Of a stretch of 64,000 nucleotides of DNA, positions 3,946 to 58,407 are shown in pieces. A program made the translations under genes and the position numbers. Positions within the stretch are counted from its first letter, which is position 1. Every line of letters starts with the position of its first letter. The notes beneath the pieces are model-generated. The model did not search any database. It saw only the letters and a program-made list of their open reading frames with translations, and was not told the origin of the DNA. Source of the stretch: an uncultured actinomycete (GTDB taxonomy: Bacteria > Actinomycetota > Acidimicrobiia > Spongiisociales > UBA5794); the NCBI GenBank assembly GCA_942491345.1, contig CALOAN010000021.1:261355-325354 (forward strand). The letters run 5' to 3'.

Positions 3946-4698
3946 TCAGATGCCTGCCCCGTGGACGAGTGCGGGCTCGAGGACGATCGAGTCGGTAGGA
4001 CTGTCGCCATTCACGCGCTCTTCGAGCTGTTGCACCCGTTCGAAGAGGATCTCGATGACCCGAACGGCATGGTCGTCGCCACTCTCTTCTAGCGCCAAGC
4101 TCAACGCCGGTGCACCCGGAACGTGCTCGTCGATCACACGACCGGCCAATCCCACGACGGTCGAACCGGCCGGCACATCTTTCACGACCACGGCCCCGGC
4201 CCCTACTCGCGCGCCCGATCCGACAGCGACGGCGCCCAGGATCTTCGCCCCGGCTCCAACGACAACTCTGTCGCCGAGGGTTGGGTGCCGTTTCTGTTTC
4301 TTGAGGCTGGTGCCACCCAGCGTCACACCTTGGTAGAGCATGACGTCGTCACCGATCTCGGCGGTTTCGCCGATCACGACGCCCATGCCGTGGTCGATGA
4401 CGAACCGGCGTCCGATCGTTGCCCCGGGGTGGATTTCGATGCCGGTCACGGCGCGGCTCGCCTGGCTTGCCAGCCGCGCAATGAATGGATGACCCCCGGT
4501 CCACAGTCGATGAGCAAACCGATGAATCGTCACTGCGTGGAGTCCGGGATAGAGAAGGAGCACTTCGGCGACACTTCGGGCCGCGGGGTCGCGGTCGAAG
4601 ACGGCTTGAATATCCTCGCCGAGCCTCCCCCAGAGACGGAGCCACCATCGCCTGGGCCCTTGACGCCCGCTCGCGGGCACGGAAGTCGGACGAGTCAC
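3946..4698 (-). CDS. cysE: Serine O-acetyltransferase
   Basis: [20 protein letters not shown]...[44 protein letters not shown] (hexapeptide repeats). GTG start overlaps the cysK stop (GTGA at 4695-4698). Confidence 0.9.
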
Positions 4699-5645
4699 GG
4701 CGCGACGCTCGTTTCGTCATTCTGGGCCAGCCCCGCCGAGAGATAACGCTCGCCGGTGTCGGGCAGGATGACGACGATGAGCTTCCCTGTGTTCTCCGGC
4801 CGGTTCGCGACGACGAGAGCAGCGTTGAGAGCTGCTCCGCTTGAGATCCCCGCAAGGATTCCTTCCTCGCGTGCGAGACGGCGGGTGGTGTCGAAAGCTT
4901 CGTCGTTGGTGACGGTTATGATTTCGTCGATGATTTCCGGCCTGAGGACGTTTGGCACGAAGCCGGCTCCGATTCCCTGGATCTTGTGCGGACCCGGTTG
5001 ACCACCCGACAGGACGGGGGAGTCTGCCGGTTCGACCGCCACCACGTGCAGCGAGGGTTTCCGATCCTTGAGTACCTCGCTGACACCGGTGATCGTTCCG
5101 CCGGTACCGACTCCCGCCACGAAGATGTCGATGTCGCCGTCCGTATCAGACCAGATCTCTTCAGCGGTCGTTCGGCGGTGGATGTCCGGGTTGGCGGGAT
5201 TCGAGAACTGTCGGAGCATGACCGCATCGGGAATCTCTGCCGCGAGCTGTTCGGCTCTCGAGATGGCTCCGTTCATGCCGGTCGTTCCATCGGTGAGCAC
5301 AACCTCTGCGCCGAGCAGGCTCAGGAGCTGACGGCGTTCGATGCTCATCGTGTCCGGCATGGTCAGTACGAGTCGGTAGCCCTTGGCCGCTGCGGCGGAT
5401 GCCAATCCAATTCCGGTGTTGCCGCTTGTGGGTTCGACGAGCGTCGTTTCGCCAGGGCGCGCAGCACCCGCCCGCTCGGCAGCGTCGATCATGTTCAGGC
5501 CAATGCGGTCCTTCACGCTCGAGAGCGGATTGAACGACTCGACCTTCGCGACGATGCGAGCACCGCCGGTCGGAGAGAGGTGTCCAAGTTCGACGAGCGG
5601 TGTGCCGCCGATCGTCTCGGTGATATCGGAGAGTATCTGTCCCAT
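4695..5645 (-). CDS. cysK: Cysteine synthase A (O-acetylserine sulfhydrylase)
   Basis: IGGTPLVEL...[16 protein letters not shown]...[10 protein letters not shown] is PLP-enzyme typical. The start at 5645 has a GGAGGA RBS. The longer ORF to 5753 is rejected. Confidence 0.9.
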
Positions 5646-7733: not shown

Positions 7734-7853
7734 CCATTCCGCGGGCTGACGGCGCCGCATACGGGGTGGAGAACCCTGGGTTCGCTGCGCCGACCATTCC
7801 GCGGGCTGACGGCGCCGTATGCGGGGTGGAGAACCCTGGGTACGCAGGTAGGG
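7734..7853 (+). repeat. 60-nt tandem repeat, 2 units (family shared with 55116-55346)
   Basis: Units start at 7734 and 7794 (ccattccgcgggctgacggcgccg[c/t]at[a/g]cggggtggagaaccctgggt...). The array ends 5 nt before the ATG at 7858. Confidence 0.8.
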
Positions 7854-37094: not shown

Positions 37095-39800
37095 TCAACG
37101 CTTCCAGGGATCTCCAACGTCCGGGTCGATGCCGAAACGTTCGATCGCCTCGCGCACGACCCCGGGATCGATCCGCTGGTCGCGTGCGAGCGCGGACAGC
37201 GTTGCGACAACTACGTGGCCGGCGTCGGTCTCGAAGAATTCGCGGAGGGCCTCCCGAGTGTCGCTGCGCCCGTATCCGTCGGTTCCGAGCGACGTGTACG
37301 AACGGGGAACCCAGCGCGAGATCTGGTCCGGGACCGTGCGCATGTAGTCGGTGACGGCGATGACCGGCCCGAGCGTGCCTTCGAGCTGCCGTGTCACGAA
37401 GGGAACCTTCGGACCCTCGCCGGGATGCAGGCTGTTCCAACGGTCCACCGACATGGCCTCTTCTCGCAGCTTCTTGTAGGACGTGGCGCTCCAGAGTTCG
37501 GCCCCAACGCCGTATTCCTCGGCGAGGATGGTCTGAGCTTCCCGTGCCGCCGAATGAGATGGACCCGAGAACAGGATGGTCGCGCGGTACTTCGTGCCGG
37601 TCGGTGCCGGCGCCCATCTGTACAGGCCGTCGATGATTCCCTGATCGGACCCTTCCGGCTTCGGCGGTTGGGCGTAGGCCTCGTTGTAGAGCGTGAGGTA
37701 GTAGTAGACGTCTTCGTTGTCGACGTACATGCGCTTCAGGCCGTGTTCGATGATCCCGGCGATCTCGTAGGCGAACGCCGGGTCATATGCCTCGCATGCC
37801 GGGATGACCGAGGCGAGAACGTGGCTGTGCCCATCCTGATGCTGGAGGCCCTCGCCCAACAGCGTCGTTCGTCCCGATGTTGCGCCGAGGAGGAACCCGC
37901 GTGCGCGCGAGTCTGACGCGGCCCACAATAGGTCACCGACGCGTTGGAACCCGAACATCGAGTAGTACGTGTAGAACGGCACCATCGGCACGCCGCGGGT
38001 GGCGTATGAGGTTCCGGCGGCGATCCAGCTCGCCGTCGATCCGGCTTCGGTTATGCCCTGCTCGAGGATTTGACCGGACTGCGATTCCTTGTACGAGAGG
38101 ATCAGGCTGTGATCGACCGGTTCGTAGAGCTGGCCCTGCGAGGCGTAGATCTGTAGCTCCTTGAACAGCGCATCCATCCCGAAGGTGCGTCCTTCGTCCG
38201 GGATGATCGGCACAACACGGCGCCCGAACTGCTCGTCACGAGCGAGGCTTCGCAGCAGACGGGTGAAGACGCCGGTCGTGGACGCCTCGGCGTCGCCCGA
38301 TCCGGCATCGAACTCGGCGAAAGCCTTGTGGTCAGGCATCTCGATCGGTGTGCGGATCTCGAGCGTCCGACTCGGCACCGGACCGTTGAGCGCGTCCCTG
38401 CGCTCGGTCAAGTAGCGGTACTCGGGCGAGTCAACCGGGGGCCGGTAGTACGGCGGGCGGTCGAGTTCGAGTGCCTCATCGGGTATCTCATCGTTGAGGG
38501 ATAGCAGGTCACGAAGGCCGACCAGCTGGTCGCCCGTGAGGTTCTTGACGGAATGGGTTGCGTTCCTGCCCTGAACCTGGGGTCCGAGCGTCCAACCCTT
38601 GATGGTCTTCGCGAGGATTACCGTCGGTCGGCCCTTCATCTCCGTCGCCGCCTTGTAGGCGGCGTAGATCTTGCGATAGTCCAGACCGCCGCGGCGGAGA
38701 GCCCACAGGTCATCGTCGGTCATGTCTCGGACGAGTTGGCCGAGGCGGGGATCCGGGCCGAAGAAGTGCTTGCGCACGTACGCGCCGGACTCTGCCTTGT
38801 AGCGCTGGAATTCGCCGTCGACGGTGGAGTTCATCTTGTCGATGAGCACCCCTTCGGTGTCTCGGGCGAGCAGTGGGTCCCAACCCGAACCCCAAATCAC
38901 CTTGATGACGTTCCAGCCGTTGCCGCGAAAGATCGCTTCAAGTTCCTGGATGATCTTCCCGTTGCCGCGCACGGGGCCGTCGAGGCGCTGGAGGTTGCAG
39001 TTGACGACCCACGTCAGATTGTCGAGCTTCTCGCGGCCTGCGAGGGAGATCGAGCCGAGGGTCTCGGGCTCGTCGGTCTCGCCGTCGCCGAGGAACGACC
39101 ACACGCGGGAGCCGGACGTGTCGTCGAGATCGCGATTCTCGAGGTACTTGAGGAACTGGGCGTGATAGATCGAGTTGATCGGTCCGAGGCCCATCGAGAC
39201 CGTCGGGTACTCCCAGAATTTCGACATGAGCCGCGGGTGCGGGTAGCTCGACAGGCCGGGTTCGCCGATCTCGCGGCGAAAGCGGTCGAGGTCCGCCTCG
39301 TCGAGGCGCCCTTCGAGGTAGGCACGGGCATATACGCCGGGCGCGGCGTGGCCCTGGAAGTAGATATGGTCGCCCGGCTGACCGTCGGCGGTCCCCCGGA
39401 AGAAGTGGTTGTAGCCAACCTCATAGAGGGTTGCCGAGGAGGCGAAGGTCGAGAGGTGGCCGCCGATGCCGGGGGCAGCACGATTGGCGCGGATGACCAT
39501 AACCGCGGCGTTCCAGCGAATGAACCTGCGGATTCGTTTCTCGAGCTGCGCGTCGCCGGGGAACGGCGGCTCATCTTCGGGTGGGATCGTGTTGACGTAG
39601 GGTGTTGATACCGCGCCTGGAACCGCGATGTGGTTGCGCGCAGCCTCTCGGATGAGGCGCGCGACCAGGTATTGAGCCCGGCCCTGGCCGTCGGTCGCGA
39701 CAACTGAGTCGAACGCGTCGAGCCATTCTGCGGTCTCCGTCGGATCCGTGTCGATGTGTGGTCCGGTGTATCCGTCAATGAAGGTGGGTGGTTCGCTCAT
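37095..39800 (-). CDS. aceE: Pyruvate dehydrogenase E1 component (homodimeric type)
   Basis: About 900 aa. DTDPTETAEWLDAFDSVV N-terminus, and a GDGETDEPE thiamine-PP binding region. Confidence 0.9.
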   Translation of the reverse strand: MSEPPTFIDGYTGPHIDTDPTETAEWLDAFDSVVATDGQGRAQYLVARLIREAARNHIAVPGAVSTPYVNTIPPEDEPPFPGDAQLEKRIRRFIRWNAAVMVIRANRAAPGIGGHLSTFASSATLYEVGYNHFFRGTADGQPGDHIYFQGHAAPGVYARAYLEGRLDEADLDRFRREIGEPGLSSYPHPRLMSKFWEYPTVSMGLGPINSIYHAQFLKYLENRDLDDTSGSRVWSFLGDGETDEPETLGSISLAGREKLDNLTWVVNCNLQRLDGPVRGNGKIIQELEAIFRGNGWNVIKVIWGSGWDPLLARDTEGVLIDKMNSTVDGEFQRYKAESGAYVRKHFFGPDPRLGQLVRDMTDDDLWALRRGGLDYRKIYAAYKAATEMKGRPTVILAKTIKGWTLGPQVQGRNATHSVKNLTGDQLVGLRDLLSLNDEIPDEALELDRPPYYRPPVDSPEYRYLTERRDALNGPVPSRTLEIRTPIEMPDHKAFAEFDAGSGDAEASTTGVFTRLLRSLARDEQFGRRVVPIIPDEGRTFGMDALFKELQIYASQGQLYEPVDHSLILSYKESQSGQILEQGITEAGSTASWIAAGTSYATRGVPMVPFYTYYSMFGFQRVGDLLWAASDSRARGFLLGATSGRTTLLGEGLQHQDGHSHVLASVIPACEAYDPAFAYEIAGIIEHGLKRMYVDNEDVYYYLTLYNEAYAQPPKPEGSDQGIIDGLYRWAPAPTGTKYRATILFSGPSHSAAREAQTILAEEYGVGAELWSATSYKKLREEAMSVDRWNSLHPGEGPKVPFVTRQLEGTLGPVIAVTDYMRTVPDQISRWVPRSYTSLGTDGYGRSDTREALREFFETDAGHVVVATLSALARDQRIDPGVVREAIERFGIDPDVGDPWKR

Positions 39801-39874
39801 ACCTATGAATCTCTTTGTTGGAGGTGTCTGAGCGTACTGAGATGCGAGTCTTTGGGCGACAGAAAGTGGGACGC

Positions 39875-40433
39875 GAGACTTGAGACACGAGACTTGAGAC
39901 ACGCGTCGGACCTCATGTTCGTGATCCGAGCTCCCAGGCCGCCCCCTCTGCGACCGGACTTGCGTCCGGCCGCGTCTCCCCCACTACGTGGTGGAGACAA
40001 AGGCCCGGGCCGCCCCCTCCCGCCCTCGCTGCGCTCGGGCACCCTGGCAGCGGGCCTCATCTGCGCGATTCTGGCTCCCAGGCCGCCCCCTCCCGCCCTC
40101 GCTGCGCTCGGGCATCCTGGCAGCGGGCCTCATCTGCGCGATTCTGGCCCAGGCGCCCCCCCCGCCCTCGCTGCGCTCGGGCATCCTGGCAGCGGGCCTC
40201 ATCTGCGCGATTCTGGCTCCCAGGCCGCCCCCTCCCGCCCTCGCTGCGCTCGGGCACCCTGGCAGCGGGCCTCATCTGCGCGATTCTGGCTCCCAGGCCG
40301 CCCCCTCCCGCCCTCGCTGCGCTCGGGCACCCTCCCCCACCTTCGGTGGTGGAGGGGAGAAGCGGAGGGTTTTCGCCTCTCCCACGGAGTGGGGGAGGTG
40401 CGTCCGGCCAATTGCCCGGACGCGGAGGGGGCT
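39875..40433. repeat. Largest copy of the GC-rich mosaic element (14-bp doublet, X module, H1 hairpins, 73-bp array, H2 palindrome)
   Basis: gagacttgagacac x2 (39875-39902); H1 at 39974-39998; 73-bp array; cUUCGg-looped hairpin at about 40333-40356; CGTCCGGCCAATTGCCCGGACG; ends with cgcggagggggct (40421-40433). Confidence 0.8.
40008..40333. repeat. 73-bp tandem repeat, about 4.5 units
   Basis: Units start at 40008, 40081, 40152, 40223 and 40296. Units 2 and 3 are 71 nt (two 2-nt deletions). Unit = ggccgccccctcccgccctcgctgcgctcgggcaccctggcagcgggcctcatctgcgcgattctggctccca. Confidence 0.85.
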
Positions 40434-40451: not shown

Positions 40452-42916
<2,465 letters not shown>

Positions 42917-54584: not shown

Positions 54585-55055
54585 GTGATGATGTCGGCAG
54601 TGCTTGTCCCGGACGATTTCGACGTGCCCCTTGCGTTCGAAGGTCCGGGCTTTCGGCTCGAGCCACTGGGACCGGAGCACAACGAACGCGACCACGACGC
54701 CTGGATGTCGAGCATCGATCACATCCGAGCCACGCCGGGGTTCGGGCCAACGCGGCGCTGGCCGCAGCCCATGGATCTTGATGAGAACCGAAGCGACTTG
54801 GTCGGTCACGCGACCGACTTCGAGAACCGCGAGGGTTTCACGTACTCGATCCTCGATGGCGACGAGGTGATCGGGTGTGTCTACATCTATCCGTCCAAGG
54901 AGCCCGCGCACAAGGAGCCCGCGCACGATGCGGCGGTGTCGTCGTGGGTCCGCGCGAGCCGTTCTGAGATGGATATGGTCGTCCACCGGTCGCTCAGCGC
55001 ATGGCTCGCCGAAGCCTGGCCGTTCGACAATCCCGACTACGCGGAGCGGGAGTGA
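54585..55055 (+). CDS. GNAT-like acetyltransferase family protein (tentative)
   Basis: FRLEPLGPEHNERDHDAWMSS...FTYSILDGDEVIGCVYIYP pattern. Contains an in-frame 15-bp tandem duplication (KEPAH x2). Confidence 0.5.
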   Translation: MMMSAVLVPDDFDVPLAFEGPGFRLEPLGPEHNERDHDAWMSSIDHIRATPGFGPTRRWPQPMDLDENRSDLVGHATDFENREGFTYSILDGDEVIGCVYIYPSKEPAHKEPAHDAAVSSWVRASRSEMDMVVHRSLSAWLAEAWPFDNPDYAERE

Positions 55056-55115
55056 CCGCGTACCCAGGGTTGTAGACGTCCTATTTGGCGTCTCCAGCCC
55101 GCGGAACGCGAGCCG

Positions 55116-55346
55116 CCATTCCGCGGGCCCACAGCGCCGTATGCGGGGTGGAGAACCCTGGGTACGCAGCGCCACCCATTCCGCGGGCCCACGGCGCCGT
55201 ATGCGGGGTGGAGAACCCTGGGTTCGTGATCAGCCATTCCGCGGGCTGACGGCGCCGTATGCGGGGTGGAGAACCCTGGGTTCGCAGCGCCACCCATTCC
55301 GCGGGCCCACGGCGCCGTATGCGGGGTGGAGAACCCTGGGTTCGTG
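55116..55346 (+). repeat. 60-nt tandem repeat, 4 units (family shared with 7734-7853)
   Basis: Units start at 55116, 55176, 55234 and 55294. The array lies about 100 nt upstream of the heliorhodopsin ATG. Confidence 0.85.
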
Positions 55347-55448
55347 GACTACCTCGCGCGCGATCGCGGTAAGGTGCAGCCTCACCGGAGTTGGCGCGTC
55401 GACTGGAGTGCCTCTCCGTTGCTGTCACATCGATCTCGGGAGGGCCCA

Positions 55449-56213
55449 ATGGTCTCAAAAGTTGAAGTAACCGACGCTGACTTCAGTCGACTCAGAACGT
55501 ACAACTGGGTGATGGGCGGCCTGCATCTTCTCCAGGCAGTCTTGGTCCTGGTGCTGGCAACCGACTTCACGCTGCCGGTGACCGGAACGTTCCCTGAGGG
55601 ACCCCCCGGCAGCCCCTCGGAGACGGTCACGCTGTTCGAGCTCTCGATCGCCTGGGGCGTCGCCGCCTTCTTGTTCCTCTCGGCGCTGTTCCATTTCATC
55701 GTGGCGAGTGTTGGGGCGGGCCGCTACCGCGACCAGTTGTCCCGTGGACAGAACCAGTTCCGATGGATCGAATACTCGCTGTCGTCATCGATCATGATTG
55801 TTCTCATCGCGATGCTGACGGGGATCTCCGGTATCGCCGCCATCCTTGCTCTGTTCGGGGTCAACGCCGGCATGATCTTCTTCGGATCCGTCCAGGAACG
55901 GTATGAGGCCCCCGGTGGCTCCTTGTGGCCATTCTGGCTCGGTGTGGTCCTCGGCGTGGTGCCGTGGATCGCCATCGGTATCTATCTGGTGTCCCCCGGA
56001 AGTGATGCACAGCCTCCTGGGTTCGTCTACGGAATCTTCTTCTCGTTGTTCGTGTTCTTCAACACCTTCGCTATCAACCAGTGGCTGCAGTACAAGGAGG
56101 TGGGGCGCTGGCGCAACTATCTGACCGGCGAACGCACCTACATCCTCTTGAGCCTCCTGGCGAAGAGTCTCCTTGCCTGGCAGGTCTTTGCGGGAACCCT
56201 CGCAGGGACGTAG
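55449..56213 (+). CDS. Heliorhodopsin
   Basis: Collinear with heliorhodopsin 48C12 as I remember it: GGLHLLQ, LSALFHFIV, NQFRWIEYSLSSSIMIVLIA (counterion Glu), FVYGIFFSLFVFFN, SLLAKSLLAWQVFAGTL (Schiff-base Lys). Confidence 0.9.
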   Translation: MVSKVEVTDADFSRLRTYNWVMGGLHLLQAVLVLVLATDFTLPVTGTFPEGPPGSPSETVTLFELSIAWGVAAFLFLSALFHFIVASVGAGRYRDQLSRGQNQFRWIEYSLSSSIMIVLIAMLTGISGIAAILALFGVNAGMIFFGSVQERYEAPGGSLWPFWLGVVLGVVPWIAIGIYLVSPGSDAQPPGFVYGIFFSLFVFFNTFAINQWLQYKEVGRWRNYLTGERTYILLSLLAKSLLAWQVFAGTLAGT

Positions 56214-57449: not shown

Positions 57450-57565
57450 CTGCACTCTGCAGACATCGGATATACGAAGCAGGTGTCGCGGTTGGATGAC
57501 GGGAGACTCGATTCTTGACCGTTCTCGCCAGAAGGTGTTTCTCGTGACGGGCCCAACCTGCTATC

Positions 57566-57577
57566 TTACTACTAAAT
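57566..57577. promoter_or_regulatory. AT-rich box 2 (TTACTACTAAAT) abutting the regulator start
   Basis: 11/12 identity with box 1. Such AT-rich 12-mers are rare in this GC-rich sequence. Confidence 0.3.
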
Positions 57578-57579
57578 GG

Positions 57580-58407
57580 ATGACACGAAACCCGAAGAAG
57601 CTGAGCCTGCACGAGGTCGCCGAGATCCTCGACGTGCACTACATGACCGCGTACCGGTATGTCCGGTTGGGAATCCTCCCTGCGCGACGCGAAGGTCGGA
57701 GCTGGCGAATTCATCGCGACGACCTCGATGAGTATCTCTCGAAGGATGAGCCCCGCACGCAACGGGGTGAGGCCGACTGGGGCGACCGCTTCTTCAATCG
57801 AGTCCTCGCCGCCGACGAGGCAGGGGCGTGGGGGGTTGTCGAAGCGGCGCTCAGCTCCGGGATGACGATTCCCGAGGCGTATCCCACCCTGCTCGCTCCG
57901 ACGATGCGTCGTATCGGCGAGCTGTGGGCGACCGGCGAGGTCGATATCGCGAACGAGCACGCCGCCTCAGAGGTGGTATCGAGGATCGTCGCGAGACTCG
58001 GACCGCGTCTGGCACGTCGCGGGGTTCGGCGGGGTACCGTGGTGCTCGGTTCGACGGCGACCGAACTCCATTCGCTTCCGCTTGCCATGGCGACAGATCT
58101 CTTCCGAGCCGCGCAGTTCGAGGTCGTGGACCTCGGCGCCTATCTTCCGCCCAAGTCTTTCGCTGCATTTGTTGCCGACATAGATGACCTTGTTGCCGTC
58201 GGAGTCGGCGTGACCATGCCCGGTCAGGCGGACGAAATCCGCAAAACGCTCGTCGCCATCCGTAACGTCACCGACGTCCCGATTGTCATCGGCGGTGGCG
58301 GGGTTGATGAGGCAGCCGCACTCGAGCTCGGTGCCGACGGGTGGGCTCAAACCGGAGACGAGGCAGTTGAGCTGGTGGAGGCGTTGCTCGAGCCCTTCAA
58401 AGCCTGA
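57580..58407 (+). CDS. CarH/LitR-like B12-binding photoreceptor-regulator with excisionase-type HTH
   Basis: N-terminus LSLHEVAEILDVHYMTAYRYVRLGILPARREGRSWRI (HTH_17-like). Helical bundle with W-x9-EH (WATGEVDIANEH). Rossmann B12 domain LGSTATELHSLPL...VGVGVTM...IVIGGGG. Confidence 0.8.
   Translation: MTRNPKKLSLHEVAEILDVHYMTAYRYVRLGILPARREGRSWRIHRDDLDEYLSKDEPRTQRGEADWGDRFFNRVLAADEAGAWGVVEAALSSGMTIPEAYPTLLAPTMRRIGELWATGEVDIANEHAASEVVSRIVARLGPRLARRGVRRGTVVLGSTATELHSLPLAMATDLFRAAQFEVVDLGAYLPPKSFAAFVADIDDLVAVGVGVTMPGQADEIRKTLVAIRNVTDVPIVIGGGGVDEAAALELGADGWAQTGDEAVELVEALLEPFKA

Follow-up and report, generated by a model that had tools for sequence, protein, structure and literature searches.

A 64-kb stretch of DNA from an uncultured actinomycete (contig CALOAN010000021.1; 64,000 nucleotides, hereafter the window) contains a heliorhodopsin gene preceded by an array of four head-to-tail repeat units, and it raises the question of whether these units control the gene behind them. 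A preliminary description of the window had proposed that they form a strand-specific RNA element in the 5'-untranslated region (5'-UTR), shared by the heliorhodopsin gene and by a CCC-transporter gene elsewhere in the window, and serving as a regulatory repeat, a protein-binding array or a processing signal; as a fallback, it had considered a REP-like element found by chance in the same orientation at both loci. It is the fallback that the evidence supports. Starting from the observed family membership, dispersal, architecture, gene-relative position, copy-number variation and folding potential of the units, we read them, with a probability of about 0.62, as a dispersed family of extragenic, partly palindromic repeats of uncultured Actinomycetota that behaves like REP, BIME and REPIN elements, and the family is best regarded as previously undescribed. 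The heliorhodopsin gene is the neighbour of the array and lies outside the repeat family.

A dispersed family of repeat units

The array was detected by Tandem Repeats Finder at 55116-55344 with a period of 60 nt, 3.8 copies and 89% matches, and it was also scored at a period of 118 nt with 96% matches, so that units 3 and 4 are a recent 118-nt duplicate of units 1 and 2. The 52-nt core of unit 1 (55116-55167) is followed by the 8-nt linker AGCGCCAC (55168-55175), unit 2 (55176-55227) by the 6-nt linker GATCAG (55228-55233), and unit 3 (55234-55285) again by AGCGCCAC (55286-55293); unit 4 (55294-55345) is the last, and all four are on the plus strand. A search with a 48-nt core gave six matches in the window, at 55116, 55176, 55234, 55294, 7734 and 7794, all on the plus strand and with 0-2 mismatches, and no match in any of 100 shuffled sequences. 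Both the four head-to-tail units in front of the heliorhodopsin gene and the two further units reported in the same orientation at 7734-7853 are thus confirmed, and the distance from the array to the heliorhodopsin ATG (55449), given earlier as about 100 nt, was measured as 103 nt. The second-locus units (7734-7785, followed by the linker TGCGCCGA, and 7794-7845, both on the plus strand) lie in the divergent spacer between a minus-strand SulP/STAS gene and a plus-strand AA_permease/SLC12-type transporter gene, and the pair ends 12 nt ahead of the first ATG of the transporter open reading frame (ORF). The window holds these two loci of the family. The earlier account of the array was nevertheless incomplete, because it overlooked a diverged minus-strand unit (55058-55109), with the centre AGACG...CGTCT, which is found both by an nhmmer match (55058-55106) and by an exact pattern match. 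Together with unit 1 this reverse unit makes a head-to-head pair, and the stop codon of the upstream gene (54585-55055) precedes its tail by 2 nt.

Outside the window the units are widely dispersed. An exact search with the invariant 19-mer GGGGTGGAGAACCCTGGGT found 13 loci in the uncultured actinomycete MFD03804.bin.2.68 and one in a second metagenome-assembled genome (MAG), while the two-box pattern, in which TTCCGCGGGC and AACCCTGGGT are separated by a gap of 20-30 nt, occurs at at least 120 metagenome loci, mostly from sediment samples; the family is common in coastal-sediment metagenomes. An nhmmer profile of the six window units recovers about 190 copies in 119 clusters over 1.03 Mb of retrieved loci, all of which were selected for carrying a unit. 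When loci are grouped as orthologous only if both flanks match, the 119 clusters represent 72 independent loci. The genes beside these loci are mutually unrelated, and in only 3 of the 72 does the repeat fall inside an ORF call. Single units account for 59 of the clusters and head-to-tail arrays of 2-5 units for a further 35, both window loci among them; there are 22 head-to-head pairs and only one tail-to-tail pair. A search of viral contigs with the unit pattern gave no match, the window has no match in Rfam 15 at the gathering threshold (at E<=10 the array gives noise only), and a literature search for the box sequences returned unrelated primer matches only.

Four parts make up each unit: box 1 (TTCCGCGGGC), a central palindrome of variable sequence, the box 2 palindrome GAACCCTGGGTWCGC, which forms a hairpin of 5-7 bp, and an extension of 8 nt, RGCGYYAS. 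Between tandem units the extension takes the form AGCGCCAN, and where an array ends that of RGCG-TYA-G; the linkers between tandem units, of 6-12 nt, are themselves conserved (AGCGCCAN). Diverged subfamilies keep both boxes and have different but perfect central stems, for example GATCGGACG-TATA-CGTCCGATC, CAGACTTCGC-CCA-GCGAAGTCTG and AGACG...CGTCT, which fold with -14 to -16 kcal/mol and z-scores of -5 to -8 on both strands. Because the stem is perfect in each case while its sequence differs, the central hairpin is the conserved feature of the family; in the subfamily of the window it has decayed (z about -1). Head-to-head pairs form hairpins of approximately 55 bp, with -80 to -100 kcal/mol and z-scores of -11 to -13 on either strand. 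Their arms are consistently of unlike subtypes, partner arms being as similar as random arms (39.4 versus 40.0 of 52 positions), and no co-variation was found between the arms of such dimers. For the dimer made up of the reverse unit and unit 1 (55056-55169), a four-way junction or a long hairpin is predicted on either strand, with a minimum free energy (MFE) of -70.8 kcal/mol (plus) or -73.0 kcal/mol (minus) and z-scores of -7.3 and -7.4, which no shuffled sequence equals.

The hairpin loops occur in both reverse-complement forms. The central loop is CATA in the first unit of the second locus (7758-7761) in place of the TATG found at 55140-55143, the box 2 loop is either CTG or CAG, and the same is seen in the units of locus L040. 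Such loops would be expected from inversion of the loop, from template switching within the hairpin, or from two coincident transitions.

Position relative to genes

Within 12 nt of a stop codon there are 49 unit tails and 13 heads. The stop codon is exactly 4 nt away from unit position 52 in 22 cases out of about 50 (in terms of independent loci, about 14 out of about 32), and the same offset appears when no genes are called: among 132 distinct tail flanks, 31 have a reverse-complement stop triplet that starts at offset 4, against 11 at offset 3 and 0-6 at most other offsets. Loci L028 (871-878), L083 (9715-9722) and L124 (283-290), and positions 55053-55057 of the window, provide examples. 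A unit thus typically lies antisense to a gene and right behind its 3' end, and the reverse unit at 55058 conforms to this arrangement. The base ahead of the stop codon is C in 20 of the 22 offset-4 cases, and the internal linker triplet CCA reads TGG in the sense of the gene, one transition away from TGA or TAG. The 47 loci whose gene setting could be classified comprise 16 convergent, 24 co-directional and 7 divergent spacers, compared with 117, 384 and 100 among 601 background spacers, so that the family is enriched between convergent genes. Within 12 nt past terminal tails, TTT is found in 19% of cases against 3% in the background.

The 4-nt stop offset may reflect the choice of target, or a stop codon created at the junction when a unit inserts into the end of a gene, or else a function coupled to translation termination.

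In seven loci (L030, L053, L061, L077, L085, L102 and L127) an ORF runs 18-88 nt into a unit before it stops, and the repeat may supply C-terminal residues to some proteins, or may mislead gene callers. Spurious long ORFs are created by the units in the window as well, for example at 54877-55470 and 55081-55458. Since units create spurious ORFs and can lengthen real ones, gene callers and RNA-motif screens should mask them in these MAGs.

Turnover at orthologous loci

The heliorhodopsin locus has orthologues in retrieved loci L039, L118 and L091, with 81-94% identity in the gene. The number of forward units is one in L039, two in both L118 and L091, and four in the window; in all four the same reverse unit comes directly past the upstream stop codon, and the forward units are followed by the same 103-nt leader, a non-repeat segment (55346-55448, plus strand) with 89% mean column identity over the four loci whatever the number of units. 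Unit number is unequal in 16 of 28 ortholog groups. One and the same orthologous site can also carry different subfamilies in different genomes, as in L005/L095/L097 and in L011/L018/L029/L075/L129. Judged on the columns that neither search pattern covers, units from different loci of the MAG are more similar (0.81) than units at the same locus across genomes (0.71), a comparison open to ascertainment bias. Occupancy by units is maintained at orthologous loci whose flanks have diverged to approximately 75% identity.

The usual setting is the 3' end of a gene, where the tail of a unit abuts the stop codon and a second, inverted unit is often present, with which it can pair to give a hairpin of about 55 bp. 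A head-to-head pair of this kind stands directly past the stop codon of the gene upstream of the heliorhodopsin gene, and the best explanation of the array is that the distal arm of the pair was duplicated head to tail until there were four units, the last step being one of 118 nt and two units; slipped-strand or unequal recombination is the most likely means of amplification. Given this variable amplification of the distal arm, the array is a variable-number tandem repeat which lies upstream of the heliorhodopsin gene by chance. Read from the upstream gene, the hairpin could act as a 3'-end structure (stabiliser, pause or terminator) that separates two transcription units, and a hairpin-specific enzyme, or gene conversion, may keep the family homogeneous within a genome.

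Several observations weigh against this reading, or limit it. The invariance of the two boxes is partly imposed by the search patterns, and the genes were called with our own ORF caller, based on GC content at third codon positions, whose 3' ends are exact and whose 5' ends are over-extended and unreliable. No empty orthologous site and no excision event was seen among loci that were all chosen for carrying a unit, which leaves the mobility of the units putative. No consistent target-site duplication surrounds single units or dimers; CTAG is present on both sides in L114 and L124, a pattern that is not general. A tblastn search of the 1.03 Mb of loci and of the window with an Escherichia coli RAYT sequence, which is a weak test, gave nothing below E=1, and a Pfam search of 17 ORFs of the window found no transposase. 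A terminator scan of 54900-55500 gave no sites and most tails lack a T-run, so that a 3'-end function can only be inferred, and the pair at 7734-7853 occupies a divergent promoter region and not the end of a gene.

REP, BIME and REPIN elements are repetitive extragenic palindromes and inverted doublets of them, known from Proteobacteria and other phyla and mobilised by RAYT/TnpA-REP, a Y1 HUH transposase whose cognate single-copy gene has units at its flanks. The family also departs from these models in two respects. REP elements carry a conserved tetranucleotide, GT[AG]G or CGTC, within 0-2 nt of the foot of the hairpin (PMC6006769, PMC3733652). The present family has no family-wide tag of this kind: GTGG stands 1 nt ahead of the box 2 hairpin in the main subfamily only, its place being taken in others by GCCG, TCAC, ACGC, GTCT and the like. 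Likewise, head-to-tail dimers are absent or rare in REP families (PMC3733652), whereas here tandem head-to-tail arrays are as common as head-to-head pairs. With no family-wide tag, with head-to-tail arrays common and with no RAYT found by the weak search, the family is filed as REP-like in behaviour and not as a proven REPIN/RAYT system.

A stronger version of the proposal would make this a REPIN-like system whose units are anchored 4 nt from stop codons and are more uniform within a genome than between orthologous sites; this we regard as doubtful. Were it true, gene ends would be where a dedicated enzyme, a non-canonical Y1 transposase or another, inserts or converts units, and the repeats might also have a role coupled to translation termination, since a ribosome that halts 4 nt from the foot of a 55-bp hairpin would need to open it.

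In locus L011 an IS30-like element (4151-5366), with a 384-aa rve + HTH_38 transposase and 20-bp inverted repeats TCTCAAGTGGTGGTCGCGAC, sits exactly in the middle of the GAACCCTGGGTTC palindrome of box 2, and a different locus, L053 (approximately 5478-5515), has a solo inverted repeat of the same element in a unit, at the corresponding position. The positions of these two copies suggest that the insertion sequence targets the GAACCCTGGGTTC palindrome. Some other insertion sequences likewise have REP palindromes as their targets. The transposase of this element was considered as a parent of the units and rejected, because the element interrupts a unit and its inverted repeats differ; and a 306-aa ORF in L086 with units on both sides, considered as a transposase, looked by eye to be of the DUF559 type instead.

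RNA structure and alternative explanations

The structures put forward in the preliminary description were examined in the window units and in 166 distinct in-register units, where pairing was compared with that after column shuffling. The proposed 9-bp pairing of CCAUUCCGC with GCGGGGUGG, including its two U-G wobbles, is present in the window units and belongs to the MFE fold of two of them. The small hairpin CCG-uaug-CGG that was placed inside this stem needs the same CGG at positions 29-31 as the stem does, so the two cannot coexist. The following hairpin, GAACC-cug-GGUUC, does exist, but a unit must have T at position 49 for it to be perfect. Across the 166 units, 67.7% of the cells of the 9-bp stem are paired, compared with 66.7% after shuffling, and only 11 units have the complete stem; the corresponding values are 66.7% against 60.9% for the small hairpin, 63.1% against 61.2% for an extended central hairpin, and 89.0% against 88.4% for the box 2 hairpin GAACC/GGTTC. 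Compensatory substitutions are absent from the 9-bp stem, and the top pairs by mutual information with average product correction in the same 166 units are not Watson-Crick pairs and reflect subfamily linkage. As for strand specificity, the window-type centre does fold better on the unit strand (-8.4 versus -2.5 kcal/mol), which speaks for the earlier claim. The claim does not extend to the family: cells that are G-T or A-C number 341 and 248 in the outer stem and 136 and 146 in the centre, and on this balance the family as a whole favours no strand. Taken singly, window units have z-scores of -0.5 to -0.7 and so no advantage in folding over shuffled sequence; for the whole array z is -2.3 on the plus strand and -0.6 on the minus strand.

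These results bear directly on the proposal of a strand-specific structured 5'-UTR RNA, be it regulatory repeat, protein-binding array or processing signal, that co-regulates the heliorhodopsin and transporter genes. It is favoured by the fact that both window arrays point at a downstream plus-strand gene for a membrane protein, by the better folding of the window-type centre and of the whole array on the unit strand, and by the position of the pair at 7734-7853, which must lie in or next to the 5'-UTR of the transporter gene and is probably either transcribed with that gene or overlaps its promoter. An element shared by these two genes is, however, hard to reconcile with some 72 independent loci beside unrelated genes, and the dominant setting, antisense and just 3' of a stop codon, also counts against a 5'-UTR regulator. 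Within 150 nt of gene starts the orientation of the units is random (31 tails and 28 heads face the start, or 31 sense and 28 antisense), which likewise argues against a 5'-UTR element. The proposed stem gains next to nothing over shuffled columns, the two hairpins compete for one CGG, single units do not fold better than chance, and no Rfam family matches. At the heliorhodopsin locus itself the number of units varies from one to four among close relatives, yet the 103-nt leader is conserved. A cis-regulatory 5'-UTR RNA of the riboswitch or leader type was rejected for the same reasons, failing on a constant sense position, on covariation and on a match to a curated RNA family. Random orientation relative to downstream genes and the lack of compensatory substitutions also answer in part to what the preliminary description had itself named as refuting. 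The genome-wide distribution has already largely refuted the 5'-UTR reading, which we now consider very improbable.

Two other explanations dispense with mobility or with RNA. The units might be host-owned, vertically inherited and non-mobile intrinsic terminators or 3'-UTR stabilisers, kept similar only by selection and gene conversion, with the arrays as by-products of slippage. The persistence of units at orthologous loci with flanks of about 75% identity, the tails that abut stop codons, the enrichment between convergent genes, the T-runs past 19% of tails and the very stable head-to-head hairpins on both strands would all fit, as would the failure to find either a transposase (with a weak RAYT probe) or a target-site duplication. 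Nevertheless most tails have no U-tract and the scan detected no canonical terminator at the window locus; the subfamily differs by genome at the same orthologous site, which calls for replacement or conversion and not simple descent; seven loci, 7734-7853 included, are in divergent promoter regions; and head-to-tail arrays of up to five units add nothing to a terminator. This explanation is accordingly unlikely. Still less probable, in our estimation, is that a dimeric protein binds the units as double-stranded DNA, through the palindromic boxes CCGCGG and GAACCCTGGGTTC, hairpins in RNA or single-stranded DNA being irrelevant. Such a protein could be a nucleoid-associated or topology factor, comparable with gyrase, IHF and Pol I at the BIMEs of E. 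coli, and the arrays could be multi-site platforms. It would account for the two palindromic boxes being the best-conserved parts while the centre varies freely, for the absence of a family-wide strand preference in the wobble pairs, and for elements that work equally in both orientations in head-to-head pairs; to judge from the reference list of PMC6006769, REP/BIME elements of E. coli are known to bind proteins. Against it, the invariance of the boxes owes something to the search patterns, the compensatory changes that keep the central hairpin in diverged subfamilies point to selection on a folded single strand and not on the duplex sequence alone, a fixed 4-nt stop offset is not expected of a site for a nucleoid protein, and no candidate protein was identified. 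A dispersed REP-like family is therefore retained as the preferred reading.

Neighbouring genes and other features of the window

The upstream gene (54585-55055, plus strand) encodes 156 aa with no Pfam family, and its stop codon (55053-55055) abuts the reverse unit, which is found in the same place in L118, L091 and L039. The heliorhodopsin gene (55449-56213, plus strand) is identified by Pfam PF18761 (E=2e-99); a database look-up with the exact protein sequence returned no record. The leader between the array and its ATG carries a GGGAGGG ribosome-binding site, together with TTGAC and repeated CGGAG...CTCCG segments, and has no Rfam match. A promoter scan from the array to the ATG found no canonical promoter: TTGAC is kept, with no -10 element at the right spacing.

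Some 1.3 kb downstream of the heliorhodopsin gene, and beyond an opposite-strand gene for a fasciclin-domain protein, lies an ORF (57496-58407, plus strand) with HTH_17, B12-binding_2 and B12-binding domains. It is a CarH/LitR-like, B12-dependent and presumably light-sensing transcription regulator, and as a lead to light-dependent control at the heliorhodopsin locus it is more plausible than the repeats. A second, unrelated tandem repeat (40004-40333; 73 nt, 4.6 copies, 95% matches) occupies most of the spacer between the minus-strand genes 37095-39902 and 40452-41510; no copy of it was found in the 134 retrieved loci.

The array, then, is not a heliorhodopsin-specific riboregulator, and says nothing about the control of this poorly understood photoreceptor. 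What it adds is a well-populated REP/BIME-like family for the Actinomycetota, a phylum with few documented elements of this kind, with clear subfamilies and a variation in copy number that can be used for strain markers. The sharp 4-nt stop offset could help to explain how such repeats choose gene ends, or stay there.

Comparison with known systems

The units resemble intrinsic terminators in having a GC-rich hairpin directly past the stop codon, A-run and T-run flanks in a subset of copies, and an enrichment between convergent genes. They differ in that most copies, and all of those at the window locus, lack a U-tract, in that the sequence is conserved over some 72 loci, and in that copies are also found in divergent promoter regions. 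A CRISPR array was rejected, since the linkers are only 6-12 nt and conserved and are not unique spacers, as was a coding repeat, since the periods break the reading frame. Head-to-head dimers of about 120 bp, non-coding and multicopy, with perfect outward-facing inverted termini of 15-17 nt (GCGAACCCAGGGTTC...GAACCCTGGGTTCGC), recall MITEs; on the other hand, a consistent target-site duplication is lacking, neither single units nor head-to-tail arrays resemble MITEs, and no insertion sequence turned up whose ends would make it the parent, the inverted repeats of the IS30-like element in L011 being different.

Among actinobacterial repeats the obvious comparison is with the mycobacterial interspersed repetitive units or MIRUs, VNTR minisatellites which Supply et al. 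in 1997/2000 are said to have described as direct tandem repeats of about 50-60 bp, intergenic, present at tens of actinobacterial loci and variable in copy number. They reportedly lie inside operons in the sense orientation, with small ORFs that overlap the flanking genes. Going by that description, the likeness extends to an actinobacterial host, direct tandem intergenic repeats (here with a period of 58-61 nt and 1-5 units), copy number that varies between close relatives and a non-random position relative to gene ends. In contrast, the proximal unit of the present family is antisense to the upstream gene, its periods of 58, 59 and 61 nt break the reading frame, and inverted doublets are frequent.

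Beside the departures already discussed, the present family differs from REP elements in a longer unit (52-60 nt) with two conserved boxes around a variable hairpin, in the sharp 4-nt offset from the stop codon, and in its host phylum, the Actinomycetota not being mentioned in PMC3733652. REP, BIME and REPIN elements are short, partly palindromic units of several subtypes, which occur in clusters and as head-to-head heterodimers with long hairpins; they lie downstream of ORFs, between co-directional and convergent genes, and persist at orthologous sites (PMC6006769, PMC3337134, PMC3733652). In the same way, the units described here are short, partly palindromic and dispersed over many extragenic sites in several subtypes, are found mainly downstream of ORFs between co-directional and convergent genes, form clusters of up to about five, persist at orthologous sites, and harbour an insertion sequence within a palindrome. 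Their head-to-head doublets likewise form long hairpins from arms of unlike subtypes, as do the Y and Z REPs of BIMEs (PMC6006769, PMC3733652).

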